Source: Thermoanaerobaculia bacterium
Lineage (GTDB): Bacteria; Acidobacteriota; Thermoanaerobaculia; Multivoradales; JAGPDF01
Assembly (NCBI GenBank): GCA_963712855.1
Contig: CAVQJN010000001.1
Span: 742,747 to 806,746, forward strand
Direction: 5' to 3'
DNA length: 64,000 bases
Below are positions 3,989 through 47,182 of this stretch, piece after piece. Numbering within the stretch: the first letter of the stretch is position 1; each line of letters starts with the position of its first letter. A program made the translations under genes and the position numbers. The notes under the pieces are model-generated. The model searched no databases. It was not told the origin of the DNA and was given only the letters and a program-made list of their open reading frames with translations.

Positions 3989-3991
3989 TCC

Positions 3992-5383
<1,392 letters not shown>

Positions 5384-17353: not shown

Positions 17354-17400
17354 ATCGCGAGTGTCCAGTTGGTGGTGGTGTCAACCTGGGGAGCAGGTCA

Positions 17401-23066: not shown

Positions 23067-23141
23067 GACACGCTCAACAGACGGAATCCAAGGCCCAGAT
23101 TCCTCGCTAGTCGGGTGGCACCTTTCTCCGGTGGTGGTCAA
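22211..23141 (-). mobile_element. Y1 transposase element copy 2 (3'-truncated, tandem to copy 1)
   Basis: Contains the same 5' terminus (22... ggtggcacctttctc at 23127-23141) and tnp gene. Its 3' ~90 bp and terminal repeat are missing. Confidence 0.6.
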
Positions 23142-25545: not shown

Positions 25546-25773
25546 CACTTGAACGAGGCCATTATCCCAATCGCCCGCCGGCCGTCCAATGGAGAGCTCC
25601 ACAAGTTTCCGCGCGCGCCTGCGAAGGCCACCGGGAAACTCTCGCCCGGGCCCACGCGCACCAGAACCGCGCCGGTCAACTGCGCAGAGGTACCAACCGA
25701 TTCGCAAATCTACTGGCATCAACTACTTGCCAATCGGCTAGCACCTTCTCCTTCTTCGCGGATCGCTGCGCGC

Positions 25774-26852: not shown

Positions 26853-27482
26853 TCATCGCAGCCACGCCAGAGACGCGACTTCGTCAAATCGATCGACGTG
26901 ACGGCCGCAGCGCGGACAGCGGGTGACCCAGCCGGCGACCCCCTGCGCCGCGCGCCAGAAGGCGGGTGGTGCGCAGAACCAGTGCCACTCGAGCCGGGAT
27001 GGGAGGGTCAGGCAGGGCCAGCAGGGGCGTACCCGGGATCGCTGGCGGGCCCGCCGCTCCGCGGTCGGTTCGATGGGACGGACGACCCAGTCGGCGAGCG
27101 CATGCTCGGCGAGCCAGTCGTCGGGCACCAGCCGGCCGACTCGTTGCGGAAAGATGCGGACGAAGAAGGTGCCCGCGGCCCGGGTGGGGAGAAGGGCGTA
27201 GCCCGAGATCAGAGCCCGCGCTTGCGCTAGCCGGCGCGCTCGCACGATCAGAGAGCGAAAGCGCCGGGGCGACTGCGCGCCGCCGAAGTATGCGGTGTCG
27301 TCGTCGTGCACGAAGACGACGCCCGCGACGCCCGGCCGGCGGGCGAGCTCGCCCGCCGCCACGCGCAGGGCCTCCAGGTGGAGCTCGCGATCTCCTGGCA
27401 ACCGCACCTCCACGACAATCGCGTCCCCCGCGAGACGCCGGAAGTCGGCCGCGAGATCCTCGCTCAGCGGCCGGTTCGTCAA
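26853..27482 (-). CDS. Hypothetical protein with C-terminal CxxC zinc-ribbon-like motif, translationally coupled to the upstream AAA+ ATPase
   Basis: 209 aa. Its start codon overlaps the AAA+ gene stop (27479-27482). C-terminal C-W-P-C ... C-P-R-C-G arrangement. No recognised domain. Confidence 0.35.
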   Translation of the reverse strand: MTNRPLSEDLAADFRRLAGDAIVVEVRLPGDRELHLEALRVAAGELARRPGVAGVVFVHDDDTAYFGGAQSPRRFRSLIVRARRLAQARALISGYALLPTRAAGTFFVRIFPQRVGRLVPDDWLAEHALADWVVRPIEPTAERRARQRSRVRPCWPCLTLPSRLEWHWFCAPPAFWRAAQGVAGWVTRCPRCGRHVDRFDEVASLAWLR

Positions 27483-28862
27483 TCCGCCTCCTCCGCTGCG
27501 AGGAGGCCGAACCCCGCCGTTCGCCGCTCCGGCGCCCGGCCGACGAGATCCAGCGCGCAGAGCAGGTGGACTCGCAACACTTCGACGCGCTCCATCGCCT
27601 CGCCCTCACGCTCCAGCACCGCGGCGGCGATGGCGCCATTGGCGACCTCCTCGATCTGCGCCCCCGTCGAGCCGTCCAGTCGTTCGACCGCCCAGTCGAG
27701 GTCTTCGTCCGCGACGCCGACGTGGCGGAGCCGGTGGCCGAGCAGCCGCCGACGGGTCTCCGCGTCGGGGGGGCCGATTTCGAGGATCTGGTCGAAGCGC
27801 CCCGGCCGGTTGCGCACCGCCTCTTCCACCACCTCGAGCCGGTTGGTGGTAGCGATGGTCAGGATCGGCTGATCGCCGGCTGCCCCGTCGAGCTCGTTCA
27901 TCAGCGGCCCGAGCAGGTCGTTGCGGAAGCCGCGATCTCGGCTCTGCGCGATGAGGTCGAGGTCTTCGAGGAAGATCACGGTGGGCGCCAGCCAGCGGGC
28001 GATTTCGAAGACCTCGTGCACGTGGTCGGGCTTCTGCAGATCGGCGGGGGTCACCCAGAGAAAGGTGCAAGAGAGACTCTCCGCCAACTCGCGTCCGATC
28101 GAGCTCTTGCCAGTGCCGGGCGGGCCCGCCAGGATGAGGCCGGCACGGCGCCGCAGCCCGAGCCTCTGGGTGGCCGGGGAGGTGAAACGCCGGACCGCGA
28201 AGTCGAGGCGCTCGCGCAGGAGCCCGGGTAGGAAGAGCCGCTCGTCTTCGGAGCTTCCTGCGGCTCGGCGCCATGGTTCCGTCAGCGAGCAGCTTGCGGC
28301 CACGCAGCACGTTGTGCGCGCGCGTGAAGTCGAGCCAGTCCTCGAGCAGCTTCGGCTGGCGGTCGAGCTGCAGGGCGGCGATGCCGATCTCGTTGGGGCC
28401 GAAGCTCTCGGCCTCGAAGCGCACGACGCAGCGCTCGCGGTCACGTTCGAGGAAGAGCTGGAGGTTCTTCGGGATCTCGAGCCAGAGGCTCGGGTCGAGC
28501 CTGAGGCTCTCGAACTCGGGTGGCACGACCGAGGAGTTGCCGCGCGGCCCCTCTTCGAATCCGATCGCGCCGCGAATCCGCCACCCCTGGCTGTCGAGGA
28601 ACGCCTCGAGGGAGCTCCAGAGGAGCGCTGCGCGCAGCTTGCCGAAGAGCATGTAGAGCTTGATCGAGCCGTCGCTGCCGAGGAACTGCGAGGTCAGCCG
28701 GGTGAGCAGGCAGTCTTCCTCCTCGAAGCGGAGGAGCTTGAGGAACTCCTCGGAGCTGCGGCGATGGATCGGGGGCACGGGCTCCGCACCGGGCGGGATG
28801 GCGCGCAGGGCTTCGCGCCCGGCTTCGCGTTGCTCGTCAGGGATCTCGGGGATGGGTTGCAT
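27479..28862 (-). CDS. AAA+ ATPase (classic clade) with ~200-aa N-terminal domain; frameshifted near 28255-28270 in this assembly
   Basis: C-terminal half carries Walker A GPPGTGKS, Walker B IFLEDLDL, sensor-1 TTN and RNRPGRFDQ (arginine finger region). The N-terminal half (MQPIPEIPDEQ...KLLADG) is in the other frame (ORF 27606-28958). One gene with a 1-nt indel. Confidence 0.6.
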
Positions 28863-31228: not shown

Positions 31229-34200
31229 ATGAATAGGCAGCCGGGGTCATCTCAGTCCGTCCGTGTTCTCCTGATTCTGCTGATAGCGTTCGTCGGATCG
31301 CAGACAGCAGCGAGATCCGACCCGCCTCAGTTGTATGCGTTCACAGGCGATCCTACGCCCCTCGGGACTCGCACTCCCTTGATCCTGATTCATGGTCTTC
31401 AACCGAATTGCGACGAGACATACGAAGGAGTCTGGGCAAACTTCGTGTGGAACGAGTGGGCGAACAACGTCGAACTCCGACAGAAGACAAAAGTGTACCT
31501 ATTGAGGTACGAAACCGTCCAAGGAAAACTGGCATCCGGCGACCCTACAAACGTTGCATCTGTGGCTACAGCTCTCGGTGAGCAACTGGAGTCGAGTCAA
31601 CAATTCCCTGAGTTCTCGGGAAAGGACTTTCTCTTAGTCGCGCACTCCTTGGGTGGTCTAGTCGCCAGGTCCTTCATGCAGCAATTCCGATTCTCTGATG
31701 GAACTCTGGGGGGGGCCCGAGTCCTCAGGCTGATTACTTTAGCCACTCCACACCATGGCAGCCCAATTGCCAACATAGCTGAAGGCTACCCATCGGTCTG
31801 GTGCCTCACTCCTAGCAACGGATTTCTTCAAGACCTTTCATGGGATGCGTACGATGGCTTCCTCTTCCTCTTGGATCCGTGCAACCCCTGGTTAGGAAGC
31901 TTGAATATCAGCGGAGGCGCGCCCTCATATGCCACTCAAGCGTGCGCATATCAGGACGTACCTGGAGAAGATGGTGAGTTCTCGAAAATCTTCGCCTACG
32001 GCGGCGAGACGACACCTCTCGCTGCCACGCTCGATTTCGTTCTCTCGAATTCACTATTGAATGCGCGCGGATACGAGCACAATGACGGTCTAGTGCCGCT
32101 TGGTAGCGCTCTATTCGACGGGGTATCCCTTGGCGCCAAACGCACGGTAATCGCTCCCTGTAACCATGGCCAGATCGTTGGTGGATCGTGCAGCGTCATC
32201 TATGACAACGGAGATATTGCCAGTGTCTTTGACGCGGTGGCCAATGATCTGCTAGCAGCGCTTAACGAGGATCCAACACCAGTCATCATGTCGGTAAGCC
32301 CCAGCGTCTTGGCAACTGAGCCACTTCCTCAGACACAGCGTTTGACGATTTCAGGGAGTGATTTTGCGCCTGACGCCACTCTGACGTTCTTTGACGGAAG
32401 TTCCCACTATGTGGGGCGATCTCCCATTCCGCCAGTACAGCCTAACCAACTTCAATACGACATTGCTGCGGGCCCGTACGAAGGTGCTTGGACTGTCCAG
32501 GTGGTTAACGGCACGAAGGCTTCGAACGAATTTCCGTTCTGGGTTGTCGACACGCCGGGCAACGACGACACAGCACCACCCGCACCGATCGACCCACAGA
32601 TGTCACCAGCATCCTGGGGCAACCCAATTCTCTTCTACCTCGACTGGGCGAATCCAGCCGATCCCTCTGGAGTCACCAAAGTCTGGTGGAAGTGGGACAG
32701 CCCGCCCACATTTCAGGGTGACGGCATTGGACTTGCCCTCCCACTCTTCAAACCGCTCCCCGTTGCACCTGTCACAGAGGGTGCGCGAACGATCTATTTC
32801 TGGCTTGAGGATGGGAGTGGAAACTCCGATTTCCACAACTGGGCCAGTGCCACCGCTTACTACGATGTAACTGCGCCGTCGCTCTCGATTGACGAGAGTC
32901 CGGACGGTTCCCCCATTCAGATCGCCAGCAGCCAGCTGATCTTGCACGGGTCGGCCACGGACAACCTCAGCGGCGTCGGTGGCATTAGCTGGATGAGCAA
33001 CCGCGGTGGTACAGGAGGCGCAACGGGGACAACCAACTGGTCAACGTCATCGATCCTGCTTGCTCCAGGCGACAACGTGATCACTGTCTCAGCCACTGAC
33101 CGCGCGGGCAACTCGGCATCCGAATCGCTTACCGTGACCTCGACCGCCCAGCCATCGGCCTGCGGTCCCTGGGAGTGGGACTCACCAGTGTCGAACGTGG
33201 CGAGCGCCGCTGCCTATGGGGATGGCAAGTGGGTGGCAGTCGGCTACAGCGGTGCGATCTGGACGAGTCCGGATGGGGTCACTTGGACTCCGCAGACGAG
33301 CTCAGTGGCCCAGAGCCTCAACGACGTCATCTGGACCGGCAGTCAGTTTATGGCGGTCGGTAACAACGACACGATCCTGACCAGCCCGGATGGGGTGAAC
33401 TGGCAGGTCGTGAGGTCCTCATCGGTCTTTAACTACTACGGCGTGGCCTGGAACGGATCGCAGTATGTGCTCGTGGGTCGTGGGGCCTCCCCGACAACGA
33501 CGAGCCGGGGTTGGATGTGGACGAGCTCGGACGGCGCGGTCTGGACACAACGCTTCTACGACCCTGACACCAACTACAGATCACCGATCTGGAGCGGGAC
33601 GTTGTTCGCCCTGCTCGACAACAAGGGCAACGTCTACACCAGCCCGGACGGCGCCAACTGGACCAGCCAAAACATCTCGGCCACGGGATTGAACGACGTC
33701 GCCTGGAGTGGCACCGAGTACCTCATCACCCAGGGCACCACCGTCTACACCAGCCCCGACGCCGTCACCTGGACTCCTCACTCCATCACTCCTTCGCTCA
33801 GCCACGTGATCTGGGCCGGCAACCGCTTCGTAGCAACCAGCGGTCCTCAGATCTGGTCGAGTGCGGACGGGCTGAGCTGGACATTGGAGACCACCGACGG
33901 CAATGGCGACATCAACGACCTTGCCTGGAGTGGCAACCAAGCCATCGCGGTCAGTGGTGGAGAGTCCTTCTGGAGGCAGAGCTGCACGCTTCCCGCTGCG
34001 GATTTCCGCTTCAGTCCGGCTACACCGTTGCGCAACCAGCCGGTCGCCTTCTTCGACCAGTCCACCGCTAGTCCGACGGCCTGGAGCTGGGACTTCGGCG
34101 ACGGCCAGGGAAGCTCGCAGCAGGATCCGACCCACACCTATGGCCAAGGTGGCGTCTACTCGGTGAGCCTCGCCGCGACCAACGCCTTCGGCACGGACAG

Positions 34201-37200
34201 CACCCAGCAGCAGATCACCGTCTCGCTACCGACCAGCCCGTGCAGCCCCTGGGAGTGGGACGCCCCGGTGGCGAGCCCGGTCAACGCGGCGACCTACGGC
34301 AATGGCCAGTGGGTGGCGGTGGGCAATTCCGGATGGATCGGGACGAGCCCGGATGGGGTGACCTGGACGCAGCAGACGAGTCCGGTCACGACCAAGCTGC
34401 TCGATGTCATCTGGACGGGCAGCCAGTACATGGCAGTCGGCTTCGCCGGCACGATCCTGACGAGCCCGGACGGAGTCACTTGGCAAGCCAGCAACAGCAT
34501 CTCCGGCGTTTACGACCTCTATAGCGTAGTCTGGAGCGGCTCACAGTACCTGCTCGTGGGAAGACTCCCGAGCACCACGAGGAGCTATGTTTGGACGAGC
34601 TCGGACGGTCACGTCTGGGCCCAACGTCTCTATGGACCTGACACCACGTACCTCCATCCGATCTGGAGTGGGACGCTCTTCGTCCTGCTCGACAACAAGG
34701 GCAACGTCTCCACCAGTCCGACGGGCGCGAACTGGACGACCCAGAACATCTCGGCCAGCGGATTGAACGAAGTGGCTTGGAGCGGCACCGAGTACCTGAT
34801 CACCCAGTGGACCACGGTCTACACCAGCCCCGACGCCGTCACCTGGACTCCTCACTCCATCACTCCTTCGCTCAGCCACGTGATCTGGGCTGGCAACCGC
34901 TTCATTGCCGCCGGAGGAACCGGGACGACACAGATCTTCTCCAGTCCCGATGGACTCAACTGGACCTTGGAGACCACCGACGGTAATGGCGGCATCAACG
35001 ACTTGGCTTGGAGTGGCAATCAAGCCGTGGCGGGTGCAGGAGCTTCTTTCTGGACCCAGAGCTGCACAATTCCGACAGCCGACTTCCGCTTCAATCCGGC
35101 AGCACCTCTACGCAACCAACCTGTCGCCTTCTTCGACCTCTCCAGCGCCAATCCAACGTCATGGAGCTGGGACTTTGGTGACGGCCAGGGGAAGCTCCCA
35201 GCAGGATCCGACCCACACCTATGGCCAAGGTGGCGTCTACTCGGTGAGCCTCGCCGCGACCAACGCCTTCGGCACGGACAGCACCCAGCAGCAGATCACC
35301 GTCTCGCTACCGACCAGCCCGTGCAGCCCCTGGGAGTGGGACGCCCCGGTGGCGAGCCCGGTCAACGCGGCGACCTACGGCAATGGCCAGTGGGTGGCGG
35401 TGGGCAATTCCGGATGGATCGGGACGAGCCCGGATGGGGTGACCTGGACGCAGCAGACGAGTCCGGTCACGACCAAGCTGCTCGATGTCATCTGGACGGG
35501 CAGCCAGTACATGGCAGTCGGCTTCGCCGGCACGATCCTGACGAGCCCGGACGGAGTCACTTGGCAAGCCAGCAACAGCATCTCCGGCGTCTACGACCTC
35601 TATAGCGTGGTCTGGAGCGGCTCACAGTACCTGCTCGTGGGAAGACTCCCGAGCACCACGAGGAGCTATGTTTGGACGAGCTCGGACGGTCACGTCTGGG
35701 CCCAACGTCTCTATGGACCTGACACCACGTACCTCCATCCGATCTGGAGTGGGACGCTCTTCGTCCTGCTCGACAACAAGGGCAACGTCTCCACCAGTCC
35801 GACGGGCGCGAACTGGACGACCCAGAACATCTCGGCCAGCGGATTGAACGAAGTGGCTTGGAGCGGCACCGAGTACCTGATCACCCAGTGGACCACGGTC
35901 TACACCAGCCCCGACGCCGTCACCTGGACTCCTCACTCCATCACTCCTTCGCTCAGCCACGTGATCTGGGCTGGCAACCGCTTCATTGCCGCCGGAGGAA
36001 CCGGGACGACACAGATCTTCTCCAGTCCCGATGGACTCAACTGGACCTTGGAGACCACCGACGGTAATGGCGGCATCAACGACTTGGCTTGGAGTGGCAA
36101 TCAAGCCGTGGCGGGTGCAGGAGCTTCTTTCTGGACCCAGAGCTGCACAATTCCGACAGCCGACTTCCGCTTCAATCCGGCAGCACCTCTACGCAACCAA
36201 CCTGTCGCCTTCTTCGACCTCTCCAGCGCCAATCCAACGTCATGGAGCTGGGACTTTGGTGACGGCCAGGGGAGCTCCCAGCAGGATCCGACCCACACCT
36301 ATGGCCAAGGTGGCGTCTACTCGGTGAGCCTCGCCGCGACCAACGCCTTCGGCACGGACAGCACCCAGCAGCAGATCACCGTCTCGCTACCGACCAGCCC
36401 GTGCAGCCCCTGGGAGTGGGACGCCCCGGTGGCGAGCCCGGTCAACGCGGCGACCTACGGCAATGGCCAGTGGGTGGCGGTGGGCAATTCCGGATGGATC
36501 GGGACGAGCCCGGATGGGGTGACCTGGACGCAGCAGACGAGTCCGGTCACGACCAAGCTGCTCGATGTCATCTGGACGGGCAGCCAGTACATGGCAGTCG
36601 GCTTCGCCGGCACGATCCTGACGAGCCCGGACGGAGTCACTTGGCAAGCCAGCAACAGCATCTCCGGCGTCTACGACCTCTATAGCGTGGTCTGGAGCGG
36701 CTCACAGTACCTGCTCGTGGGAAGACTCCCGAGCACCACGAGGAGCTATGTTTGGACGAGCTCGGACGGTCACGTCTGGGCCCAACGTCTCTATGGACCT
36801 GACACCACGTACCTCCATCCGATCTGGAGTGGGACGCTCTTCGTCCTGCTCGACAACAAGGGCAACGTCTCCACCAGTCCGACGGGCGCGAACTGGACGA
36901 CCCAGAACATCTCGGCCAGCGGATTGAACGAAGTGGCTTGGAGCGGCACCGAGTACCTGATCACCCAGTGGACCACGGTCTACACCAGCCCCGACGCCGT
37001 CACCTGGACTCCTCACTCCATCACTCCTTCGCTCAGCCACGTGATCTGGGCTGGCAACCGCTTCATTGCCGCCGGAGGAACCGGGACGACACAGATCTTC
37101 TCCAGTCCCGATGGACTCAACTGGACCTTGGAGACCACCGACGGTAATGGCGGCATCAACGACTTGGCTTGGAGTGGCAAGGAGTTGGTTGCCGGAGGAG

Positions 37201-38381
37201 GCGCTGGCGCAATCGGAACGCAGGGCTGCAACGATGCTGTGGATCTCCAGGTCACTGGGCCCTCGGTGAGCTCCACCTCTCCAGAACCCGGTTCAGATCT
37301 TGTCGTCTACATGACCGCCTCGAACCTCGGCACAGATCCCAGCAATGCAACTACGCTGGTTTACTACCGCTCATCGGATGCCGTGATCTCCTCCGCCGAT
37401 ACGGAGATCGGTCAGGACTCGATCTCCAGCTTGGCCGGTGGGGCGAGCTCTCCACAGAATCTGCAGACAACTGCCCCGAGCAGCGACGGGACGTACTGGT
37501 TTGGAGCCTGCATCCTGCCAACTGGCGATGAGTCCAATGTATCCAACAATTGTTCGACCGGAGTTGAGGTTGATGTGGTGTCCCACCCCGACCTCGTCGT
37601 CATTGACCCGTCAGTCGACAACGCGGCCCCAGCACAGGGACAGCAGATCACTATCCACGCGACCGCCAAGAATTCAGGAATCGCCGCATCAGCTGCGACA
37701 AACCTCACTTACTACCTCTCCCCGGACCCGACAATCACTTCTGGCGACACGTCGCTCGGTCAGAAATCCGTCCCAGCGCTGTCGCCAAATGGCACCTATC
37801 CGGACAGCCTTCAGACTACTGCGCCGCCCGCCACAGGCAACTATTGGCTTGGCGCATGCGTTCAGTCTGTCAGTGGTGAGACCAATGTCTCCAACAACTG
37901 TTCGACCGGCGTGGAGATTCAAGTTGGGCCCGCTTGCACAGACGATGAATTCGAGCTCCTCGGGAGCGACAACTCTGATGACACCTGCTACGGCGCCAGC
38001 GTCGTGCCAGGAGTCGCGCAGCAACATCTTCACTGCGACGAAGACTGGGTTCGCTTCGTGCCAGATGCAGGAGCTACCTACCGCATCGAGACTTCATCCC
38101 TAACTGGTGGAGCCGACACAACACTCGCGCTACACCAAGACTGTGGTCAGCAGCAGTTGGCGTTCAACGACAACTTCACAGGCCTCGCATCACGAATCGA
38201 CTGGACCGCTACAGGTACCGCGCCGATCGATATCAGAATCCAAGAAAGGGCCGGTACTTACGCAACTGGGGAGGGCTACACCATCTCCGTGTCTTGCATC
38301 GCCGGATGCGCGCCCGTCCCAATCTTCGCCGACGGCTTCGAGGACGGCACTCTTTGCGCATGGTCGAACGGAGGATGCTAG
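31229..38381 (+). CDS. Giant secreted multidomain protein: alpha/beta-hydrolase (lipase-like) + Ig-like domains + 4x [BNR/Asp-box beta-propeller + PKD] + 2x CARDB + PPC-like C-terminal domain; single frameshift near 35192
   Basis: Signal peptide; ILIHGL...VAHSLGGLVAR (GxSxG serine hydrolase). Repeated YG(D/N)G(K/Q)WVAVG...TSPDGVTWT (SxDxGxTW Asp-boxes) blocks, each followed by PKD (WDFGDGQ...THTYGQGGVYSVSLAATNAFG). CARDB-like segments at 37230-37900. C-terminus ...IFADGFEDGTLCAWSNGGC. ORFs 31229-35605 and 34905-38381 differ by a 1-nt insertion (GGGGAAGCT versus GGGGAGCT in the other copies). Confidence 0.75.
34221..37180 (+). repeat. Near-perfect tandem repeat, unit 1080/1081 bp, ~2.7 copies (preceded by a more diverged copy from ~33150)
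   Basis: The same >100-nt strings recur at 34264, 35345 and 36425 (offsets 1081 and 1080). Each unit encodes one beta-propeller plus PKD module. Confidence 0.9.
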
Positions 38382-38657: not shown

Positions 38658-39917
38658 GTGCCCCTCGCACCGAGACCCTTCATGTCATCTCTTCTTCAGA
38701 CTGAGCTCGCCTCGCGACACCTGTGCAATGCTTGCATTGTTGACCGACAGTTCCTAAGGGGCACCCTCCAGCAGCAGCGAGCTAAAGCTCGACATGCACT
38801 CCAACTGGTCGATCTCTACTGTGGAGCCGGGGGACTCTCTCTGGGAGCCGCGATTGCGGCGCGGCGCTACGCCACTAACGTCGACGTGCGTCTAGCCGCC
38901 GACTCGTGGCAGCCAGCCATCGACGTTTATTGCAGCAATTTCGAGATTGAGCAGGCACGAGTCGCCGCGGTAGAGGATCTCTTCGATGGCGAGCTTGGCT
39001 CTACCCGCCGAACTCGAAGTGAGAGAGCGCTACGCGACAGTGTCGGTCCGGTCGGTCTTCTGGTTGGTGGTCCGCCCTGCCAGGGATACTCGGATCTCAA
39101 CAACCACAGCCGCCGGCGTGATCCCAGGAATCGCCTGTATGCCCGAATGGCGAGGGCCGCAGAGGTCCTGACGCCCAAGGTGATCGTGATCGAAAACGTG
39201 CCAGCTGTTATCCACGACGACGAGAACGTCGTCGCCGTCACGAGCTCGGCGCTCGATGACGCTGGCTACGATGTAATGGGACAAGTCTTCGACATGAGCG
39301 CACTTGGCTTGCCCCAGACTCGCAGACGCCATCTGCTCCTTGGAGTCCAGCGAGGTTTGGGCAGGGCGAGAGTCATGCTCGACGCCATCGCCCCAAACTG
39401 CCCTGTCCACCAGCCAAGAACTGTTCGGTGGGCGATCGAGGATCTCGCAAGGCTGGTGCCGAAGAGTCTCTTCGACCAGCCCAGCCGCAACAGTAGAGAG
39501 AACTCCGCGCGCATCCAATGGCTCATGACCCATGACGCATACGATCTGCCCAATCGAATGAGGCCGCGCTGCCACCGCGGTGAGCATTCCTACAAATCGA
39601 TGTACGGGCGCCTTCGCTGGGACGCGCCTGCGCAGACGATCACGACAGGTTTCGGATCGATGGGACAGGGGCGATACGTGCATCCGAGCGAGGCCCGGAC
39701 GATCACACCGCATGAAGCGGCGCGTCTCCAGTCGTTCCCGGATAGCTTCTCGTTCGCGGCGGCACCCAACCGTGGCGCTCTCGCCCAATTGATCGGCAAC
39801 GCCGTTCCCCCACTCTTCGCCGCTGCCGTGATCTCCACCATCCTCTCGACGCTATTTCCCGGGTCGGCTCGCCGCATCACACGCCGCCCCCCCCAAGGCA
39901 CCGCACGCAATGGCTAA
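38658..39917 (+). CDS. dcm: DNA (cytosine-5)-methyltransferase
   Basis: Motif I LYCGAGGLS, motif IV GGPPCQGYS, motif VI ENV, motif X QLIGNAVPP. 419 aa. Confidence 0.9.
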   Translation: MPLAPRPFMSSLLQTELASRHLCNACIVDRQFLRGTLQQQRAKARHALQLVDLYCGAGGLSLGAAIAARRYATNVDVRLAADSWQPAIDVYCSNFEIEQARVAAVEDLFDGELGSTRRTRSERALRDSVGPVGLLVGGPPCQGYSDLNNHSRRRDPRNRLYARMARAAEVLTPKVIVIENVPAVIHDDENVVAVTSSALDDAGYDVMGQVFDMSALGLPQTRRRHLLLGVQRGLGRARVMLDAIAPNCPVHQPRTVRWAIEDLARLVPKSLFDQPSRNSRENSARIQWLMTHDAYDLPNRMRPRCHRGEHSYKSMYGRLRWDAPAQTITTGFGSMGQGRYVHPSEARTITPHEAARLQSFPDSFSFAAAPNRGALAQLIGNAVPPLFAAAVISTILSTLFPGSARRITRRPPQGTARNG

Positions 39918-40338
39918 TCCGGGCACGCCGCGCGCCTCCTCTCTTCAGGCAGCGAAGAGGATGCGTGCAACCCGACAGCGGGACACCAAAGCAGAGATGG
40001 CCATTCGTTCAGCCCTTCACCGGATGGGTCTGCGGTATCGAGTGCAGGCGAGTCCGATTCCCGGTTCGAGGCGCCGTGCAGACATCATCTTCCTGAAGGA
40101 GAGGGTTGCCATCTTCGTCGACGGCTGCTTCTGGCACGGCTGTCCGGAGCATGCCTCGACGCCCCGCGTCAATCGCGCTTGGTGGGTGGAGAAGCTAGCG
40201 GCGAATCGACGCCGCGACCGAGATACTGACCATTGCCTGGCGGCGGCCGGTTGGACAGTCTTGCGCTTCTGGGAACACGAGGATCCTCTCGCCGTCGCCA
40301 ATGGGGTCCGAAACCTGGTGATCTCCAAGCGGAAGTGA
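39910..40338 (+). CDS. vsr: Very-short-patch repair endonuclease Vsr
   Basis: FVDGCFWHGCPEH...W and the overall 142-aa Vsr pattern. Overlaps the dcm stop by 8 bp. Confidence 0.9.
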   Translation: MANPGTPRASSLQAAKRMRATRQRDTKAEMAIRSALHRMGLRYRVQASPIPGSRRRADIIFLKERVAIFVDGCFWHGCPEHASTPRVNRAWWVEKLAANRRRDRDTDHCLAAAGWTVLRFWEHEDPLAVANGVRNLVISKRK

Positions 40339-40362
40339 ACTCTGCTCGAGGGGCCTTCGCAG

Positions 40363-42189
40363 TCAGTTCAACCCGAAGTACCGCTTGACCAACTCTCGGT
40401 CGAGTAGACGGTTCTGGAACTCGCAGCTCGTCTCCGGCAGCAGCGAACACGCGTGGCAGGCGGCCAGGTTGAGCGATCCCGGCCCCTGCCCGGCGCTCTC
40501 GCTGCAAATCGGATCCGAGGCGCACCACATGGCGTCTTCCAGAGCACGCTTAAGTATTGGTTCCAGTCTGCCCGGTTTCCCAAGTTCAACGAGGCCCCCG
40601 AGCGTACCGTCCGCGTCCCCAGCCGCGGTATAGAGGAGGATCCCGCCCATTTGCACCCCCGCGACTACCGGCGCAGAGTAGATCCGCTCTCGGATCGATG
40701 AGGCGCCATAGCCCGCCTCGAAGGCGAGGCGTTTGATCAGGAGATGGGCCAGCGTGTGGAGGAAGACGAGCTCGACGGTCGGGGGGAGGACGCACCTCCC
40801 CCATTCGTTTGCACGGCGGAGGAGATCGGCGTGCCGGTGATCAACGTGCTCGGAGAGTCCCGCCAGTTGGTCGAGATCGACCGTCAGGAAGATCCCTTCG
40901 CCATGGACGCGGAAAGCGGGGAGCCAATCCAGCGGCCGAAGACTCAGCGCCGACGGTGGCGCAGCCGAATCGTCGATGCGATGGAACCCAGTGAGTACCC
41001 TCGTCTCGGCTAATCGCTCGACGAGGCCCACGTGGGAGAAGCAGCCTCGCACCGGCTCCGAGTACTCCCGGAGGTCTTGGGGGCGGCACACTAGGAGGTC
41101 TTGGACGTCGCGACGCTCCTGGTGGAGCGCCCTGTACTCGGCATCGCGGAAGGCGATCTCGCTCTCCGGATCGTCGATCCCGCGGCCCGCCCGCAAGGCA
41201 TCGTAGGCGGCCCGGAGTTGCTCGGCGTCGACGCCTTTCATTGCGGCGATCACCCGGAAGGTACGGATATCGGGATCTCGCTCCGAGTCGAGTAGATCTC
41301 GAACTCTCGGCTCCTCGAGGATCTGTGCCACACGCGAGGAGTACGGAGGAATCAGGATCGAGCTCGCAGTTTTCGGGAAGTAGACGTTGGACGCGCCTCG
41401 TTGCAGCGCGAGGAGGTTCGACGACCCTCCAGGTTCCATGGGTCCGTTGCACGTCTCGACACCGTCCGGACCCAGCCATGGTCTCCTCCCCCGACATCGC
41501 AAGCCACGCACGCCCGTCGGGCTCGTCGAGCCCATGAGAGAGCGACGTTTGCCGCATGTCGCGCACTCGACCAGCAAGCCACCGAGACCTCCCATCTTAG
41601 TGGCGAAGAAGTAGAGTCGAGGCGGACTGCACCCGGTGTCCCATTCGAGAGCGCGATCCCTCGCCGAGTGAACCCATTCGTTCCACGGGAAGTCGTCGAT
41701 GTGTCCCTGGCGACAGGCGACGACGAATCGGAGCGGCAGCATGCGCGGCCGGCGGCGGTCAGGGAGGGTCCCGCAGGGCGGCTTGCCTCGCAGCCTCGGC
41801 GACGGGTGTGAGTTGCCGCACCGAGGCGGATTGAGCGCGAAGAGCTCCACCCGCTCCAGCCAACGGCAGCGGGGACAGAAGTGCCACTGGGGAAACCGAA
41901 CGTACGGGAGCGGTGCCATCGTTCCTGGTGCGACTCCACGCTCCGGCCTGGGCGGCGGCGTCAGGAAGTGACGCACCCCAAGCCGCGCGGCAAGTCGTTG
42001 GTCGAACAGCTTCGGCGCTTCGTTCGTCGGCCAGACGTCGATACCTGCCGCCATTAGTGCCTCGTCCTCGAACTCAACGATCGCCCCGACGCCGAACGGG
42101 ACGATCGACTGTGTGCGGCGCGTCGCGCGGCGCGTCACACGGCACCCCCTCGACCGGCGCCGTAACGCGGGACGACGTCGGCTCCGCAC
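40363..42189 (-). CDS. DUF1998-domain protein (DISARM DrmB-like)
   Basis: C-terminal ...GSLNLAACHACSLLPETSCEFQNRLLDR is the DUF1998 Cys4 motif, and additional Cys clusters occur in the N-terminal half. Last gene of the minus-strand operon; the start may be slightly internal to 42189. Confidence 0.7.
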   Translation of the reverse strand: MRSRRRPALRRRSRGCRVTRRATRRTQSIVPFGVGAIVEFEDEALMAAGIDVWPTNEAPKLFDQRLAARLGVRHFLTPPPRPERGVAPGTMAPLPYVRFPQWHFCPRCRWLERVELFALNPPRCGNSHPSPRLRGKPPCGTLPDRRRPRMLPLRFVVACRQGHIDDFPWNEWVHSARDRALEWDTGCSPPRLYFFATKMGGLGGLLVECATCGKRRSLMGSTSPTGVRGLRCRGRRPWLGPDGVETCNGPMEPGGSSNLLALQRGASNVYFPKTASSILIPPYSSRVAQILEEPRVRDLLDSERDPDIRTFRVIAAMKGVDAEQLRAAYDALRAGRGIDDPESEIAFRDAEYRALHQERRDVQDLLVCRPQDLREYSEPVRGCFSHVGLVERLAETRVLTGFHRIDDSAAPPSALSLRPLDWLPAFRVHGEGIFLTVDLDQLAGLSEHVDHRHADLLRRANEWGRCVLPPTVELVFLHTLAHLLIKRLAFEAGYGASSIRERIYSAPVVAGVQMGGILLYTAAGDADGTLGGLVELGKPGRLEPILKRALEDAMWCASDPICSESAGQGPGSLNLAACHACSLLPETSCEFQNRLLDRELVKRYFGLN

Positions 42190-45100
42190 TCCACGTCAAC
42201 GTTCCGCATCGAGCTGAGCGTCTCCCAACTCTCCTCCTCGCCCTCTCTAGCCACGGTCCCGGCGACCCGCATGAGGACTCGCATGTCCTGGGGTGGGCCG
42301 AAGGTTCCCCACGATGCGGCAGAGCTCTCCTCCCACTCCTGGAGCCGCCTCGCCAAGACCTCTTCGAACTCCCGGTAGTGCTCTGGGTCGATGCGCCTCA
42401 CCCGCTCGCGGATCCGGTCGATCGCTGCGGCGAACGCTGGATCCGAAGCATCGAAGTCCCTCGGCGTGGCCCAGCCGGCGGCGTGCCGGCCGGCGATCAC
42501 CAGTACGGCGTGGAGAGCTCGGTCAAGCGACGGCACGGAATAGGGCGTGACGCTCGTCGGCTCGACGTCGCGATAGAACGCCTCGTGGAAACTGCGGAAC
42601 TGCTCGTAATGCGAGCGGTCTCGCGGCCGGTTGGCATTGTAGAGCGTGAGAATCAGGCCCGGGCCCTTGCTCGAGCGCCCGACGCGGCTGCTCGCCTGGA
42701 TGTACTCCGCGGTGCTCTTCGGCTGGGTCACGATCATCATCAGTCCGAGTCGGTCGACGTCGACGCCGACCGAGATCATATTGGTGGCGAGGACCGTGTC
42801 CAGGGCCTGGTTGCCCCATTGCGCGCCCTTCGTGTACGGCACCTCCAATCGCTTCAAGATCCTCGGGATCTCCTCCTGGTCCTTGCGGCTCGTCAGCTCC
42901 TCTGCGATCCGCATATAGCGGCGCTCGTCGGCGCCGAGCCCGTAACGACGGTGCATGGTCGGCAGGAATTCCGGGATGTCCGAGGTGATGAAGGTCGCTG
43001 CCCGCCCGAGCTCGCGCAGGCTCGAGTAGTATTGGATCAGGGTCCAATAGGGATCAACGATCCCGTCGGGCGCCGCGCCCCCGGCAACGATCGGCACGCC
43101 CTGCTGCATGGCGACGACGGCCCGGATCTGGGCCGTCAGCGGCGAGGAGGCCGCTGTCGGCAACAGGCCGAGGTAGATCCTCCCTGGCTGGTTTGCGTCT
43201 TCGATCGCAAAGTAGGAATCCGAGGCCTCCAGCCCGGGAGGCGGAAACTGGAAGAGCTCGCGGTCGAAGAGCGCCCTCGCCTGCCGGCCCGCGTGCCGGA
43301 TGGTCGCTGTGGAGGCGATGATCTTCGGTCGGTGCGTGCCGCGCGAGCAGAGATGGTCGATGATGCCCTCGTATGCGCCGACGATCGACCCCAGCGGCCC
43401 CGAGATCAGGTGGAGCTCATCCTGGATGATGAGATCGGGCCCTGCGCCGATCCCGAAGATTGCCCCGGCCTGCTCACGCCAAGCGAGCATCGCAAACTTG
43501 TCGACCGTACCGATGAGGAGCGTCGGCGGGGCGCGATAGATCGATTCGTCGACCACGCAGATCGGGAGGCGATTTGCGATCTCGGAGAAGGGACAGGGCC
43601 CAACCTCGTCTCCTCGACTCGGGCAGACGAAGATCTGCCGGCCGCCACGGTCGAGGTATCCCAGGCGCTCCAGGTTGTCCATCTCCGTGCCACACCATGG
43701 ACACGAGAGCAGTTGGAACGGGTTCTTGGCATCCCAGGCACGTGCCTGCAGTCGGCTGAGCATTCGAAGCGCATCTCCCTCGTTGTTCGGAGTGAGTGAC
43801 AACCCGACCCAGAGTCCGATGGAGATCGGTTCGATGCCGAAGCTCTCTGGCGCCTCGCGTCGGATCAGCTCGCAAGCGCACACCAGCGACGCCGCTCGCT
43901 GGAACTGCTGGCTCGTCAGGAGGCGCAAGGTGTAGCGCATCAAAACTCGACAACCCCGGCGCTCGGGATCGTCGAGCCGACCGCGAAGAATTGCGAAGGC
44001 TGAGGCACCCAAGTACGCCTCGGTCTTGCCGCCGCCCGTCGGGAACCAAATGAGGTCCACGAGCTCGCGATTCGGCGGCCCGAGCTCGCGAGCCACCCAA
44101 GAGTCGGGGTCGCTCACGAGACCAGGCAGCACCATCAGCAGGAAGCCGAGCTGGAACGACCGCCAGTGGCCAGAGCGTGACTCCCAATCGGACCGATAGT
44201 CCCGCTTGCCGGGAAGCGGAACCCAGGGGTCGTCGAGCTTCCGTCGCAATCGGGAGTGATAATGCTGCATCAGCATCGCCCGGTTCATGGCCATGAAGGC
44301 GCTCATCGATCTCAGGTCCGACTCCAGGAGCTCGATACCGCTCCGCATCCTCCCCAGCGCCTCTCGACAGCGCTCGACGTTCGAGCACGCGACCGGCTGC
44401 AATCGGTCCTCGAGATCCACGACCCGCGCTTCCAGGTCAACGATCCACGCTTCGTACTCGTGGCAGAACTCGTAGAGGGCCGCCGGGATCTCGCGGCCCG
44501 GATCGCCGTCGCAATCGCCTGCCAAGAACTGCATGCTCAGATAGCGCTCCCCGCTCGCCTTTGGCACGATCGGGGCGACCTCGACCACCGGTATCGTCGC
44601 CGTGCGTAGCTCCGTCGCTCGCTCGCCTCGGCAGGAGGTCCAGTCCGCGGCACAGCCGTGACCGATGGCGAAGACGCGGCGCTCTCTGTAGAGCATCTCG
44701 AGAGCCAGTTCCTCGAGCTCGTCGCTTCGGCCCTCCGGGCTTCGATACTCGACGAACGCCGGGCGACCGTCTCGTGCACGGACGGAGAGACCGACCTGAA
44801 AGAACATCTGACCTCGTTGCCCCTTCGTGCGGTTGTAGACGCTCAGAGTCACCAGTCGCTGCCCGCTCTCTCGTCGCCGGCTCACGACTCGGAGGCGAAG
44901 ACCGGGCACGACTTCTAGGTCCTGGACCGGTTCAGCCGTGGGATCCACGCTCTGCGGTTCGATTCCCAGTGGCCGGCGATGCCAAGACGTTCGCTCTCGC
45001 CCCTCAATCGTTTCAGTATGGCTATCGTAGACAGCAGCCGAGACCTCGACGACGAGCCCCCCCTCGGGCGGATCCAACAGAAAGCTCAGAGCCATCGCCG

Positions 45101-45419
45101 AGGGGCGGTACTGATTGGCGAGGGTCACCCCGTCGTCATAGACGTCCCGCGCCTCCCGCGCCTCACCCTCTCCGGGCTCGAACTCGACCTCGGCCGCCTC
45201 AAGCTCGATTGGTTCGCCGTCGGCTTCGCCGGTCTCGCCCTCGACGCCGGCGATCGCGTCCGACTCGTTGCTCGTCGACTCCTGCGGGAACAGGACCCCA
45301 GCGAGATAGCGAATCGCCGGGGGCTCCTCAAGCGTCTCGCCGATACCCTGCGCCGGCCCGACGAGGTCCCTCACCAGGAACTCGACGAGGCCCAGGCGAA
45401 ACTCGCTGGGGTCGTTCAT
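42135..45419 (-). CDS. SF2 DExH-box helicase with ~450-aa N-terminal domain (DISARM DrmA-like)
   Basis: Motif I FPTGGGKTEAYLG, motif II DELHLISGP, motif III IASTAT, motif VI IQASSRVGRS. Start overlaps the stop of the upstream gene (ATGA at 45416-45419). Confidence 0.7.
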   Translation of the reverse strand: MNDPSEFRLGLVEFLVRDLVGPAQGIGETLEEPPAIRYLAGVLFPQESTSNESDAIAGVEGETGEADGEPIELEAAEVEFEPGEGEAREARDVYDDGVTLANQYRPSAMALSFLLDPPEGGLVVEVSAAVYDSHTETIEGRERTSWHRRPLGIEPQSVDPTAEPVQDLEVVPGLRLRVVSRRRESGQRLVTLSVYNRTKGQRGQMFFQVGLSVRARDGRPAFVEYRSPEGRSDELEELALEMLYRERRVFAIGHGCAADWTSCRGERATELRTATIPVVEVAPIVPKASGERYLSMQFLAGDCDGDPGREIPAALYEFCHEYEAWIVDLEARVVDLEDRLQPVACSNVERCREALGRMRSGIELLESDLRSMSAFMAMNRAMLMQHYHSRLRRKLDDPWVPLPGKRDYRSDWESRSGHWRSFQLGFLLMVLPGLVSDPDSWVARELGPPNRELVDLIWFPTGGGKTEAYLGASAFAILRGRLDDPERRGCRVLMRYTLRLLTSQQFQRAASLVCACELIRREAPESFGIEPISIGLWVGLSLTPNNEGDALRMLSRLQARAWDAKNPFQLLSCPWCGTEMDNLERLGYLDRGGRQIFVCPSRGDEVGPCPFSEIANRLPICVVDESIYRAPPTLLIGTVDKFAMLAWREQAGAIFGIGAGPDLIIQDELHLISGPLGSIVGAYEGIIDHLCSRGTHRPKIIASTATIRHAGRQARALFDRELFQFPPPGLEASDSYFAIEDANQPGRIYLGLLPTAASSPLTAQIRAVVAMQQGVPIVAGGAAPDGIVDPYWTLIQYYSSLRELGRAATFITSDIPEFLPTMHRRYGLGADERRYMRIAEELTSRKDQEEIPRILKRLEVPYTKGAQWGNQALDTVLATNMISVGVDVDRLGLMMIVTQPKSTAEYIQASSRVGRSSKGPGLILTLYNANRPRDRSHYEQFRSFHEAFYRDVEPTSVTPYSVPSLDRALHAVLVIAGRHAAGWATPRDFDASDPAFAAAIDRIRERVRRIDPEHYREFEEVLARRLQEWEESSAASWGTFGPPQDMRVLMRVAGTVAREGEEESWETLSSMRNVDVECGADVVPRYGAGRGGAV

Positions 45420-47182
45420 CGTATCGCCTCGCTCTGTCCAAACGATCTCTCGATCTCAGCTTCTAACCTCTCATGACGCCGTGCCTCGCAGTCCTCACGA
45501 AGGATCGTGACGAGGCGGTAGCGGGCGCGCGACATTCCGACATAGGCGATCGAACGCCACCAGTCGTCGTCGATTTCATCGAGACCCGCCAAGATCACAA
45601 CGTCATTCTCAAGCCCCTTGAAGCTCGACACGGTCGACCAGGTACCCGCCACGCCCTTCCCCGACGAACGGCCCTGGTGCGTCCTGCCCTCGTATCGCCG
45701 GAGGCCCATCCCTTCGAGGAGAACCTCCTCGTTCGGCTTGGGAGTTCGGGGGAGGAGCACCGAGAGCCTCTCGCTCGTCAGCTCCTGGGGGCCCAATCTG
45801 GCGACGACCTCGCGGAGCACCTCGAATTGGCCCTTGCGGTCTCGATAGGTCACGAATTCGACCGGCGGACCTTCCGCGCGTGCCTCGCACCGCACCCGTG
45901 GATTCGCGACGACGTGCGTCTGAATGGCAATCGGCCGCGTGTTCCGGCAGTTGGCGGTCAAGAGGTGGGTCGGGGCCAGGCTCCGGATTCGCGTCAGCAA
46001 GTCTTCGTCCAGTCGGCCGTAGACACACGCCTGGTTGTTGATGTCCATGAACAGTCGCCAGCGGCCCGACTCGAGCCCACCGAAAACGAGGAACGACAGG
46101 ACCTCGAAAACGCTGGGACCGAGGACGTCCTGGGCTTCGTCGATGATCAAGACGTCATACGGCGCCAGGACCTCCTCCAGGCAAGCGAAACCCGCGTACT
46201 CCGGATAGAGAAGCTCGAAGACAAGCGCGGGATCCATCGAGCTCGATCGGCGCACGAACTCCTCCTCGAGCGACGAGCGCTCGATCAGGCGCCGGAACAG
46301 GGCGTGGACCGTCTGGACCTCGACGCTCCCGGAGAACCGCTCGCCGTCGACCAGACTCCGGAGTCGACCTGCCAGGAACCGATTGAAGCAAAGCAGCAAA
46401 GCGCGACGGCCTTGGCGCGCCTCGCGCCGAGCAGCTTCGGCAGCCAAAATCGTCTTGCCCGAGCCAGCGGCGCCCTCGACCAGCAATCGGGGCGCTTCGG
46501 CAGCGACCTCGAGGACTACGGCCTGTTCCCGAGTCAACGACGCGAGTCGTTCCAGCGTGTCCTCGACGACGATGTCCATCGACGGAACGAGGTCGAAATC
46601 GCCGCGGGCGAGTTCGACGGTCGCCTGTATCTCCCGCAGAGTGAGCCGCGCAGTTGTTCGTCCCGCCTTCCTCTCGGCGAACCGCGCTAGCCGTTCGAGG
46701 TACGCGCCAAACGGCGCGTGCCGGTCGCGTACGTCGAAGACGAGCTCGGAATCGCCCTCAGGCCCCATTGAAGCGAACTCAATGTCCGGCAGGACGACTC
46801 CGTAGGCGAAGAGCGGCCCCCGGGCGGACTCACCCGCGACCCGCTCGCGCAGGATGCGCTCGAGTGCGAACATCGCGCTCGCCGCCTGGTCAAACGGGCC
46901 CTCGGCGCGGCGATGCTCCTGGCCGTATCGGTCCGTAAAGATCCAGATGCCCGCCTCGCGCCGGATGCGCCCACCCTTGACCTCCAGAACGAAGACGCCG
47001 CGCGGCGCCACGATCAGGAAGTCGATCTCGGCTCGACGCTTGGTCGGATGGCGCGCCAACCCGAGCGAGTGGAGGCACACCCACTCCTCCGACCCAACGC
47101 TCGTTTCGATCGTTCGGAAGATCCTCCTCTCGGCGCCACTGCGGACGCGAGAGTGGATGGTCGCCGGAATCATCCGCGCCAT
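45416..47182 (-). CDS. NERD-domain / UvrD-like (SF1) helicase fusion protein
   Basis: N-terminal NERD (…EIDFLIVAPRGVFVLEVKGG…), Walker A GAAGSGKT, motif II VLIIDEAQD, and C-terminal UvrD_C-like …KGLENDVVIL…YVGMSRAR. Confidence 0.65.
   Translation of the reverse strand: MARMIPATIHSRVRSGAERRIFRTIETSVGSEEWVCLHSLGLARHPTKRRAEIDFLIVAPRGVFVLEVKGGRIRREAGIWIFTDRYGQEHRRAEGPFDQAASAMFALERILRERVAGESARGPLFAYGVVLPDIEFASMGPEGDSELVFDVRDRHAPFGAYLERLARFAERKAGRTTARLTLREIQATVELARGDFDLVPSMDIVVEDTLERLASLTREQAVVLEVAAEAPRLLVEGAAGSGKTILAAEAARREARQGRRALLLCFNRFLAGRLRSLVDGERFSGSVEVQTVHALFRRLIERSSLEEEFVRRSSSMDPALVFELLYPEYAGFACLEEVLAPYDVLIIDEAQDVLGPSVFEVLSFLVFGGLESGRWRLFMDINNQACVYGRLDEDLLTRIRSLAPTHLLTANCRNTRPIAIQTHVVANPRVRCEARAEGPPVEFVTYRDRKGQFEVLREVVARLGPQELTSERLSVLLPRTPKPNEEVLLEGMGLRRYEGRTHQGRSSGKGVAGTWSTVSSFKGLENDVVILAGLDEIDDDWWRSIAYVGMSRARYRLVTILREDCEARRHERLEAEIERSFGQSEAIR

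Follow-up and report, generated by a model that had tools for sequence, protein, structure and literature searches.

The split gene and its product

The locus studied here lies in a window of 64 kb, by which we mean the whole stretch of DNA that was analysed. It is occupied by a 7.15-kb gene on the plus strand (31229–38381), which the sequence as given divides into two open reading frames, 31229–35605 and 34905–38381. Deletion of base 35192 restores a single open reading frame of 2,383 codons for a putatively secreted multi-domain protein. The public record carries the identical split, as proteins P0001 and P0158. A sequence-only reading had attributed the split to one extra A near 35192, and both the ORF list and the one-base deletion agree with it. 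The extra base belongs to an AA dinucleotide at 35191–35192 (plus strand), in the context GGGGA[A]GCTCC and within the WDFGDGQG-S motif of a PKD domain; the two forms are GGGGAAGCT (with the extra A) and GGGGAGCT, and the extra-base form at 35185–35195 reads GGGGAAGCTCC. At the homologous position, copy 1 of the repeat described below has CAGGGAAGCTCG, copy 2 has CAGGGGAAGCTCC and copy 3 has CAGGGGAGCTCC. The intact homolog of the site (36266–36278, plus strand) reads CCAGGGGAGCTCC and contains the palindrome GGAGCTCC.

The same reading had described the product as a secreted multi-domain protein with intragenic repeats, which the translation and the Pfam, AF2 and Foldseek evidence support. 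The repaired protein is predicted to comprise, in order, a signal peptide, a DUF676/PGAP1-like esterase, Ig-like domains, four propellers, two CARDB domains and, at the C terminus, a Cys-rich domain. The propellers would be seven-bladed Asp-box beta-propellers, with a PKD domain after each of the first three. All of these features are on the plus strand. The putative Sec-type signal peptide (31229–31312, MNRQPGSSQSVRVLLILLIAFVGSQTAARS) was read by eye in the translation. It is followed by a DUF676/PGAP1-like alpha/beta-hydrolase of the serine esterase or lipase type (31382–31762), which contains a GxSxG motif (AHSLGG) and matches Pfam PF05057 over the cutoff and PF07819 barely over it. Pfam PF07705 marks the CARDB domains in two stretches (about 37240–37556, and 37587–37907; E = 1.9e-18), and the region after them, up to 38378, contains a weak PPC-like domain and a Cys-rich tail.

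One repeat unit in protein register (35319–36398, plus strand) spans 360 aa, with a seven-bladed Asp-box beta-propeller at aa 1–281 and a PKD domain at aa 292–355. The AF2 model of the unit showed a confident seven-bladed propeller, with pLDDT >90 across most of residues 1–281, and the best Foldseek match of the propeller model was Ycf48 (2xbg, E = 2.7e-10). In the alignment, the Asp-box S-x-D-G-x-x-W varies little or not at all, and SxDGxxW occurs in every blade. No match of the propeller to the Pfam BNR and PSII_BNR models reached threshold, and the modelled assignment to BNR/Asp-box, Ycf48-like propellers is one of fold only. PF25852 is annotated on many of the propeller homologs. The PKD domain (PF00801/PF18911) was recognized by PKD_4 at 55.7 bits (cutoff 27) and by PKD at 48.8 bits (cutoff 23.5). 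A 360-aa propeller and PKD module as the unit of a tandem repeat is a modest curiosity for the evolution of repeat proteins.

Near-identical repeats within the gene

A unit of 1,080 nt (360 codons) occurs in three near-identical copies, head to tail and in frame, in a tract of about 3.07 kb (34112–37180), with 99.7–100% DNA identity. Offset mapping of direct repeats gave start-to-start spacings of 1081 and then 1080, and so recovered both the near-identical consecutive copies and the two offsets of the earlier reading. That reading had placed the tract at 34221–37180; its end holds, while identity begins earlier, at 34112. Tandem Repeats Finder, for which the longest period was 500, reported nothing, repeats of 1,080 nt being beyond its reach.

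The near-identical tract amounts to 2.84 units and consists of three X segments and two Y segments, all on the plus strand. X1 (34112–35019), the first copy of a 908-nt core, differs from X2 and X3 only at 34117, 34510 and 34528, each time at a synonymous third position. X2 (35193–36100) and X3 (36273–37180) are 100% identical over the 908 nt. The linker Y1 (35020–35192, 173 nt), which encodes the propeller end and the N-terminal half of the PKD domain, differs from the in-frame Y2 (36101–36272, 172 nt) solely by the extra base. In the last copy, the CARDB domains follow directly after the propeller, with no PKD domain. Upstream lies a fourth, older and diverged propeller and PKD module, unit 0 (about 33158–34237, plus strand), which shares 77% amino acid identity with unit 2 at a dN/dS of 0.23. 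This value, together with the synonymous nature of the X1 differences, indicates that the coding sequence is under selection.

We infer that the near-identical repeats arose by recombination. The last three propeller modules may have been recently amplified or homogenised between 1,080-nt units, by unequal recombination or gene conversion, which would have left unit 0, the older module, and the margins of the array diverged. Repeats of this kind are nothing out of the ordinary in large secreted proteins, apart from the exceptional size of the unit here. On general grounds it is plausible that recombination varies the number of repeats and so could tune the length of the protein, as the sequence-only reading suggested.

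Other one-base frameshifts in the window

Our analysis revealed three further extra-base frameshifts in the window: in prfA, in a PilS-like histidine kinase gene and probably in an AAA ATPase gene. The prfA gene, encoding RF1 (61401–62487, plus strand), has its extra base at 61586–61588, in CCAG[A]GGAGCTCC. It is split at about codon 62, tblastn placing homolog residues 3–62 and 55–361 in different frames, and removal of one base gives a protein of 361 aa that matches the homolog length. RF1 homologs measured 359–371 aa in all 120 listed, except for P0309 (294 aa) and three others; P0309 is the truncated prfA call of the same genome. In relatives, RF1 homologs are uninterrupted. We also considered that the gene at 61.4–62.5 kb might encode RF2, with its natural programmed +1 frameshift, and rejected this, since the homologs are RF1, which has none.

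In the PilS-like histidine kinase gene (2272–3988, plus strand), an extra C lies at 3717, in GGTGA[C]GCTCC. The HATPase_c domain was found in the +1 frame only, and deletion of C3717 gave an HMM match over positions 1–110 of 111. The probable extra base in the AAA ATPase gene lies on the minus strand at 28255–28256 and reads CAGGA[A]GCTCC on the coding strand. There, codon usage switches frame at 28255, and repair merges the open reading frame. No homolog spanning the junction was found, tblastn of the repaired protein against plasmids having matched the AAA domain only. Apparent frame changes in a crude GC3 plot at 27.8–29.9 kb partly reflect different genes on different strands, and were not taken as a sign of frameshifts. 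A codon-usage frame scan that was blind to the motif detected, true gene junctions aside, only pilS (peak 3712) and prfA (peak 61584). The many intact open reading frames of 600–1,100 aa had suggested an assembly free of frequent indels, a view that the split prfA, pilS and AAA ATPase genes overturned.

A shared motif at the frameshift sites

All four frameshifts are of the +1, extra-base type, and three read exactly GA[N]GCTCC: GA[C]GCTCC in pilS, and GA[A]GCTCC in both the target gene and the AAA ATPase gene. The prfA site reads [A]GGAGCTCC. Removal of the extra base leaves GAGCTCC or GGAGCTC at every one of the four sites, and the repaired genes encode intact proteins. Among all possible single-base deletions in the window, 0.36% leave GAGCTCC or GGAGCTC across the junction; from this background, the chance of finding the motif at the three other sites is about 5e-8. 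The motif was picked out post hoc, yet the p-value still holds after correction for all 7-mers. Within the 64 kb, the longer pattern CCAG-N-GGAGCTCC has only two occurrences, one being the prfA site and the other the intact site of copy 3. CCWGG, the Dcm/DrmMII-type motif, was rejected as the common motif; it has 272 occurrences in the window, none of them at the pilS or AAA site.

Three codon registers are represented: the motif is read as GAC|GCT in pilS, as G|AAG|CTC in the AAA gene and the target gene alike, and as GGA|GCT in prfA. This argues for a cause acting on the DNA or on the reads and not on translation. The error is independent of strand, one of the four sites being on the minus strand. 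The affected sites are about 4 of about 40 motif sites (roughly 10%), the remaining 36 or so being read through in frame.

These observations bear on the idea that GA-N-GCUCC is a programmed +1 ribosomal frameshift signal used across many genes of the organism. In its favour, four genes within 64 kb need a +1 shift at one motif, each then giving a full-length conserved protein. However, the three codon registers among four sites, the sites themselves, where no slow, rare or stop codon is evident, the uninterrupted RF1 homologs in relatives and the 36 or so motif sites translated straight through make this reading extremely improbable.

Origin of the extra base

We consider that the locus holds a single intact gene with recently amplified or homogenised modules, and that the extra A is a systematic, motif-specific consensus error (probability about 0.85). 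The extra base at 35191/35192 is almost certainly a sequencing error, not biology, since three unrelated nearby genes, one of them essential, are broken by an identical error at this short motif. The sequence-only reading had left the choice between an assembly indel and an authentic ON/OFF switch. The former is now strongly supported by the one-base insertions at GAGCTCC that also disrupt prfA, the PilS-like kinase gene and probably the AAA ATPase gene.

The ON/OFF switch would operate by slipped-strand mispairing between GGGGAGC and GGGGAAGC. Frameshifting indels in surface-protein genes are a classical signature of phase variation (PMC11868660). In contrast, the frameshift site here is GGGGAA (G4A2), with no hypermutable simple repeat tract. 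The longest homopolymer in the gene, a G8 run at 31708, is the sole run of at least 8, lies in frame and is not unusual for the local composition. The same type of insertion also occurs in housekeeping genes, and a frameshifted essential prfA is no biological state. We therefore give phase variation next to no credence.

The repeats themselves offer another route to an artefact, in which reads from copy 1 (GGGAAGC) and copies 2 and 3 (GGGGAGC) were mixed in consensus or polishing; for example, a run-length-encoded consensus might call the G-run as 4 and the A-run as 2. At the left edge of the identity tract a single codon varies between the paralogs, with GGG in copies 2 and 3 but GGA in copy 1, and it is exactly there that the extra base lies; copy 2 resembles both alleles in tandem. 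At the next variant position, 6 nt further downstream, copy 2 nevertheless agrees with copy 3 in having TCC and not TCG. The three same-motif frameshifts in non-repetitive genes would also be left unexplained, and for this reason we demoted the idea of tandem alleles and run-length encoding to an unlikely one.

A real and very recent mutation, GGGGAGCTCC, would make the gene a fresh pseudogene whose product is a truncated protein of 1,321 aa with a further 137 aa of out-of-frame tail, and recombinational loss of the affected unit could restore the frame. Pseudogenisation is common in large repeat-containing surface-protein genes, and the public record has the same sequence. The anatomy of the array suggests that Y1, and with it the extra base, would be lost if X1 recombined with X2 by deletion, which would put the gene back in frame. 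Nevertheless, the site fits the error motif that breaks the essential prfA, a coincidence with a chance of about 0.36%, and no coding decay is seen downstream of the shift, where 1,063 codons remain open and copies 2 and 3 are 100% identical. We rank a fresh pseudogene, as improbable, just after the mixing of reads.

Lower again we place the broader view that the extra base is real and that the three DNA-identical modules work as an accordion driven by recombination, in a gene carried on a mobile, defence-rich island; this seems quite improbable. If it were true, unequal crossing-over or gene conversion between the perfect repeats of 908 nt could purge a frameshift from one unit or spread it to others, and a reversible, RecA-dependent route from OFF to ON would exist alongside length tuning of the secreted esterase-propeller protein.

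Returning to a consensus error, one base would have been inserted into the GA^GCTCC half of a motif that contains GAGCTC, and the source of the error may be long-read, nanopore-type basecalling at an m5C-methylated GAGCTC site. Nanopore basecalling at methylated GAGCTC is the most plausible cause. Systematic errors at methylation motifs stay in nanopore consensus sequences at any depth, and in the two studies cited here the methylation-linked errors were mostly described as substitutions or classified by motif, not specifically as insertions (PMC6591954, PMC11610603). In environmental bacteria and MAGs, GAGCTC has been documented as a motif for m5C (PMC11954522). Against a simple form of this explanation, copy 3 was read correctly despite the same context over 172 nt upstream and 908 nt downstream; the error is thus not deterministic.

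A C5 cytosine DNA methyltransferase gene (38658–39917) and then a Vsr endonuclease gene (39910–40338), both on the plus strand and identified by Pfam and PADLOC matches, begin 277 nt downstream of the split gene, and the methylase adjoins a DISARM system. We would guess that this C5 methylase is the source of the m5C behind the motif-linked error. The error pattern predicts GAGCTC methylation in this uncultivated bacterium, possibly by the C5 methylase beside DISARM. The public record contains recurrent one-base GAGCTCC insertions that fragment genes, prfA included. Pseudogene, phase-variation and split-gene calls from this genome therefore cannot be trusted until it is polished.

Comparison with relatives and known systems

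Neither form of the site, the one with the extra base or the one lacking it, had a match in an exact scan of GTDB representative genomes and JGI metagenomes, and no sibling genome was found in the genome, metagenome or protein collections searched. In cluster look-ups, every protein of the contig that was checked was a singleton in the collections.

A close counterpart of the module is P0190, a 2,345-aa metagenomic protein known here from the protein alone, in which three tandem propeller and PKD modules follow straight after the signal peptide. Its module, C-x-PWE, seven Asp-box blades, C and PKD, is 41–45% identical to the unit described here. The P0190 modules are 49–62% identical to one another, which marks an old, diverged array, and there is no N-terminal hydrolase. 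The propeller shares its fold with Ycf48/HCF136-type propellers and BNR/Asp-box proteins (Foldseek 2xbg and 5ojr, probability 1.00, TM up to 0.74 on the target), but the identity is 15–17%, and the present protein is a putatively extracellular multi-domain protein with no link to photosystem II. Secreted proteins of uncultivated bacteria such as P0002, from a Verrucomicrobiota MAG, P0015 and P0016 have the N-terminal hydrolase, Ig-like and C-terminal CARDB domains in common with it, at 29–40% identity over 36–38% of the query. In contrast, their central propellers are of the Kelch type, with no Asp-box propeller and PKD modules and no sign of near-identical repeats.

It is already known that genes for big secreted proteins can carry near-identical internal repeats. 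Tandem repeats that are in frame and identical at the DNA level occur in the streptococcal alpha C/Rib family, Bap/Esp, SasG/Aap and giant RTX adhesins. As in alpha C/Rib-type proteins, each repeat here contains whole folded domains within a multi-domain protein with a putative signal peptide, and the array edges are more diverged than the interior, as expected for concerted evolution. The present array differs in its unit, a 360-aa two-domain module as opposed to an 80–130-aa Ig-like domain, in having only about three copies and in its N-terminal esterase-like hydrolase; no anchor motif was identified in this protein.

The extra base itself is best compared with motif-linked consensus errors in nanopore assemblies made from native, methylated bacterial DNA, of which those at Dcm CCWGG are an example (Wick et al. 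2019, PMC6591954; Liu et al. 2024, PMC11610603). The errors described here differ in their motif, GAGCTCC, in being one-base insertions in the GA^GC half-site and in affecting about 10% of sites, with platform and methylation inferred. What they have in common with the Dcm CCWGG errors is recurrence at a single short motif that includes a palindrome, whatever the gene, strand or frame, together with persistence into the consensus and the breaking of conserved genes.

Results

The direct-repeat search confirmed the consecutive repeats that the sequence-only reading had described in the secreted-protein gene at 31229-38381 (+), with start-to-start spacings of 1081 and then 1080 nt. Array boundaries were set by scanning offsets and by aligning the units with MAFFT. 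Three 908-nt cores, X1 (34112-35019), X2 (35193-36100) and X3 (36273-37180), are separated by the linkers Y1 (35020-35192, 173 nt) and Y2 (36101-36272, 172 nt). X2 shows 100% identity to X3, X1 departs from both only at 34117, 34510 and 34528, always synonymously at the third codon position, and Y1 equals Y2 plus one base. Tandem Repeats Finder did not report the array, solely because of its period limit of 500. An older copy upstream of the array, unit 0 (33158-34237), shares 77% amino acid identity with unit 2, at a dN/dS of 0.23. The simplest reading of the repeats is that unequal crossing-over or gene conversion between 1,080-nt units has recently amplified or homogenised them. In the alignment of the units, divergence is greater at the array edges and in unit 0, a pattern that concerted evolution predicts. 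The exclusively synonymous differences between copies, together with the dN/dS against unit 0, indicate that the propeller-PKD module is functional. Copy-number variation of the array is plausible on general grounds.

The additional base was also confirmed: at this site, copy 1 has CAGGGAAGCTCG, copy 2 has CAGGGGAAGCTCC and copy 3 has CAGGGGAGCTCC, and the gene is divided into ORFs 31229-35605 and 34905-38381. Deletion of base 35192 joined the two into a single ORF of 2,383 codons.

Our analysis revealed three other split genes. In prfA (release factor 1; 61401-62487, +), homolog residues 3-62 are encoded in one frame and residues 55-361 in the +1 frame. The prfA call in the source genome (database protein P0309) is truncated at 294 aa, while nearly all listed homologs have 359-371 aa, and deletion of one base at 61586-61588 restored the canonical 361-aa RF1. 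RF1 is essential and, to our knowledge, has no programmed frameshift; thus, the split of prfA results from an assembly error. The further split genes were flagged by scanning codon usage frame by frame. The HATPase_c domain of a PilS-like histidine kinase (2272-3988, +) was found in the +1 frame, and deletion of C3717 gave ...AMPEGGELLIRG... and a complete HATPase_c (HMM positions 1-110/111). An AAA ATPase (27479-28862, -) changes frame at 28255/28256, where deletion of one base joins the ORFs. Its N-terminal region of ~240 aa is uncharacterised, and no homolog spanning the junction was found; codon usage and ORF merging make a one-base insertion here probable but do not prove it. Among well-scoring genes, a motif-blind scan gave no further frame switches outside gene junctions.

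All four frameshifts consist of one additional base. On the coding strand, with the inserted base bracketed, the sites read GGTGA[C]GCTCC in the PilS-like kinase (3717, +), CAGGA[A]GCTCC in the AAA ATPase (28255/28256, -), GGGGA[A]GCTCC in the secreted-protein gene (35191/35192, +) and CCAG[A]GGAGCTCC in prfA (61586-61588, +). Removal of the inserted base regained GAGCTCC or its complement GGAGCTC at 4/4 sites. Of the single-base deletions possible in the window, only 0.36% yield this motif, so the probability that the three other sites share it by chance is ~5e-8, which remains small after correction for every possible 7-mer. The 64 kb contain the longer context CCAG-N-GGAGCTCC only twice, once at the prfA frameshift and once in copy 3, where the site is intact. 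Approximately 36 other GAGCTCC/GGAGCTC sites read without a frameshift, and about 1/10 of motif sites are affected. At 34109-34117, also within the motif, copy 1 has GGA where copies 2 and 3 have GGG; this, too, may be a miscall between G and A and not a genuine divergence of the paralogs.

The repaired protein begins with a Sec-type signal peptide, judged by eye, followed by a DUF676/PGAP1-like alpha/beta-hydrolase domain with AHSLGG, Ig-like domains, four propeller modules with a PKD domain after each of the first three, two CARDB domains and a Cys-rich C-terminal region. One 360-aa unit (35319-36398), modelled with the homolog alignment as input, was predicted as an all-beta propeller with pLDDT >90 over most of residues 1-281, and its top Foldseek matches were the seven-bladed Ycf48 structures 2xbg and 5ojr. 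Asp-boxes of the form S-x-D-G-x-x-W lie in the blades and are invariant across the homolog alignment. The protein ends (38300-38378) in ...CAPVPIFADGFEDGTLCAWSNGGC, a Cys-rich tail with a DGFE-x-G-x-x-x-W motif that matched no Pfam model. The window contains two homopolymer runs of at least 8, a C8 at 39887 (methylase/Vsr junction) and a G8 at 31708-31715 inside the hydrolase domain (codons L-G-G-A), in frame here.

The gene lies in an island-like region (16000-51500), with a GC content of 0.56-0.63 versus 0.65-0.73 in the flanks. Transposases mark one end of it and tRNA-Ala(GGC) (51399-51474) the other, and a repeat of this tRNA resembling an att site was not found. The stretch 15600-23500 is rich in mobile elements: an IS3-like rve-family integrase (16286-17353), whose upstream ORF in the -1 frame is probably a natural programmed frameshift; two IS200/Y1-transposase genes (21310 and 22221; 95% identical, 911 nt apart); 203-nt direct repeats (15939 and 20973); a 125-nt tandem pair (15656 and 15812); and 80-nt inverted repeats (17321 and 20734). 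A protein with three DUF7452 repeats (24577-25722, -; E = 2e-45) is encoded upstream of the island genes. A DISARM-like defence cluster occupies 38658-50421. Its + strand encodes a C5 cytosine methylase (DruM2/DrmMII-like) and Vsr, and its - strand encodes DrmB, DrmA, a NERD-UvrD-like helicase and a protein of 1,083 aa that has a DrmE C-terminal domain; a PLD-type DrmC was not observed. Elsewhere, type IV pilus genes (11-5383) encode a PilT/PilB-type ATPase, a PilC-type platform protein, the PilS-like kinase, whose gene stops 4 nt short of the pilR-like ATG (3992), and a PilR-like sigma-54 activator. At 56847-61003, a second such activator accompanies a PDZ-GAF-PAS kinase. A selenocysteine tRNA with anticodon TCA (8024-8123, -; 74 bits in Rfam, and called by ARAGORN as well) adjoins a MoeA-like molybdopterin gene (6766-7986).

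Discussion

The sequence-only reading left two origins for the extra base, an assembly indel or an ON/OFF switch. The same one-base insertion recurs at the same motif in three other genes, which strongly supports an assembly indel, and thus an artefact, as the origin of the frameshift. In contrast, the switch was not supported, since the site has no hypermutable tract; the only G8 run of the gene (31708-31715) lies away from it, in frame, and slippage would be more credible there than at GGGGAA. Because the four sites place the motif in three codon registers and include both strands, the cause acts on DNA or reads, not on translation, and a programmed +1 recoding signal is rejected on the same codon-register grounds. 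The disrupted prfA rules out a mutational hotspot of biological origin.

The recurrence agrees with motif-linked systematic basecalling errors, which survive into a long-read consensus whatever the depth; at methylated motifs such errors are documented in nanopore data (PMC6591954; PMC11610603). GAGCTC is a known m5C motif of environmental high-GC bacteria and MAGs (PMC11954522), and the overlapping GRGCYC has been reported (PMC11649196). A C5 cytosine methyltransferase and then Vsr are encoded directly downstream of the secreted-protein gene, within the DISARM-like cluster. Our data show one type of error recurring at a single motif; the long-read platform and GAGCTC methylation are inferred. 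A run-length consensus that mixed reads of copy 1 (GGA) with those of copies 2 and 3 (GGG) accounts for the target site but leaves the other three frameshifts unexplained, and is therefore kept only as a minor rival to the motif-linked error. The main practical value lies in a warning of motif-specific insertions in this public assembly, along with the GAGCTC methylation that they imply.

The frameshift is also present in the public record, since two database proteins, P0001 and P0158, are the halves of the split gene. Window proteins present in the protein collection were all singleton clusters from the source contig only, and an exact scan for the site, either carrying the extra base or lacking it, gave no match in GTDB representative genomes or JGI metagenome contigs. 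The best named RF1 matches, at 70-80% identity, were MAGs labelled Myxococcota and Thermoanaerobaculia, which places the organism among uncultivated lineages.

The protein is an intragenic tandem-repeat secreted protein, a kind already known, but its two-domain unit is unusually large. The propeller family has 89,348 representatives at E <= 1e-3, and the closest homolog of the whole protein after its own record shows 40% identity. Other relatives share its hydrolase, Ig and CARDB ends but have Kelch propellers in the middle. The metagenomic protein P0190 shares the propeller and PKD module, three in tandem, so arrays of this kind are a recurrent architecture. In contrast to the modules of P0190, which are only 49-62% identical to one another, the copies described here are identical at the DNA level, and this identity is what is peculiar to the gene.
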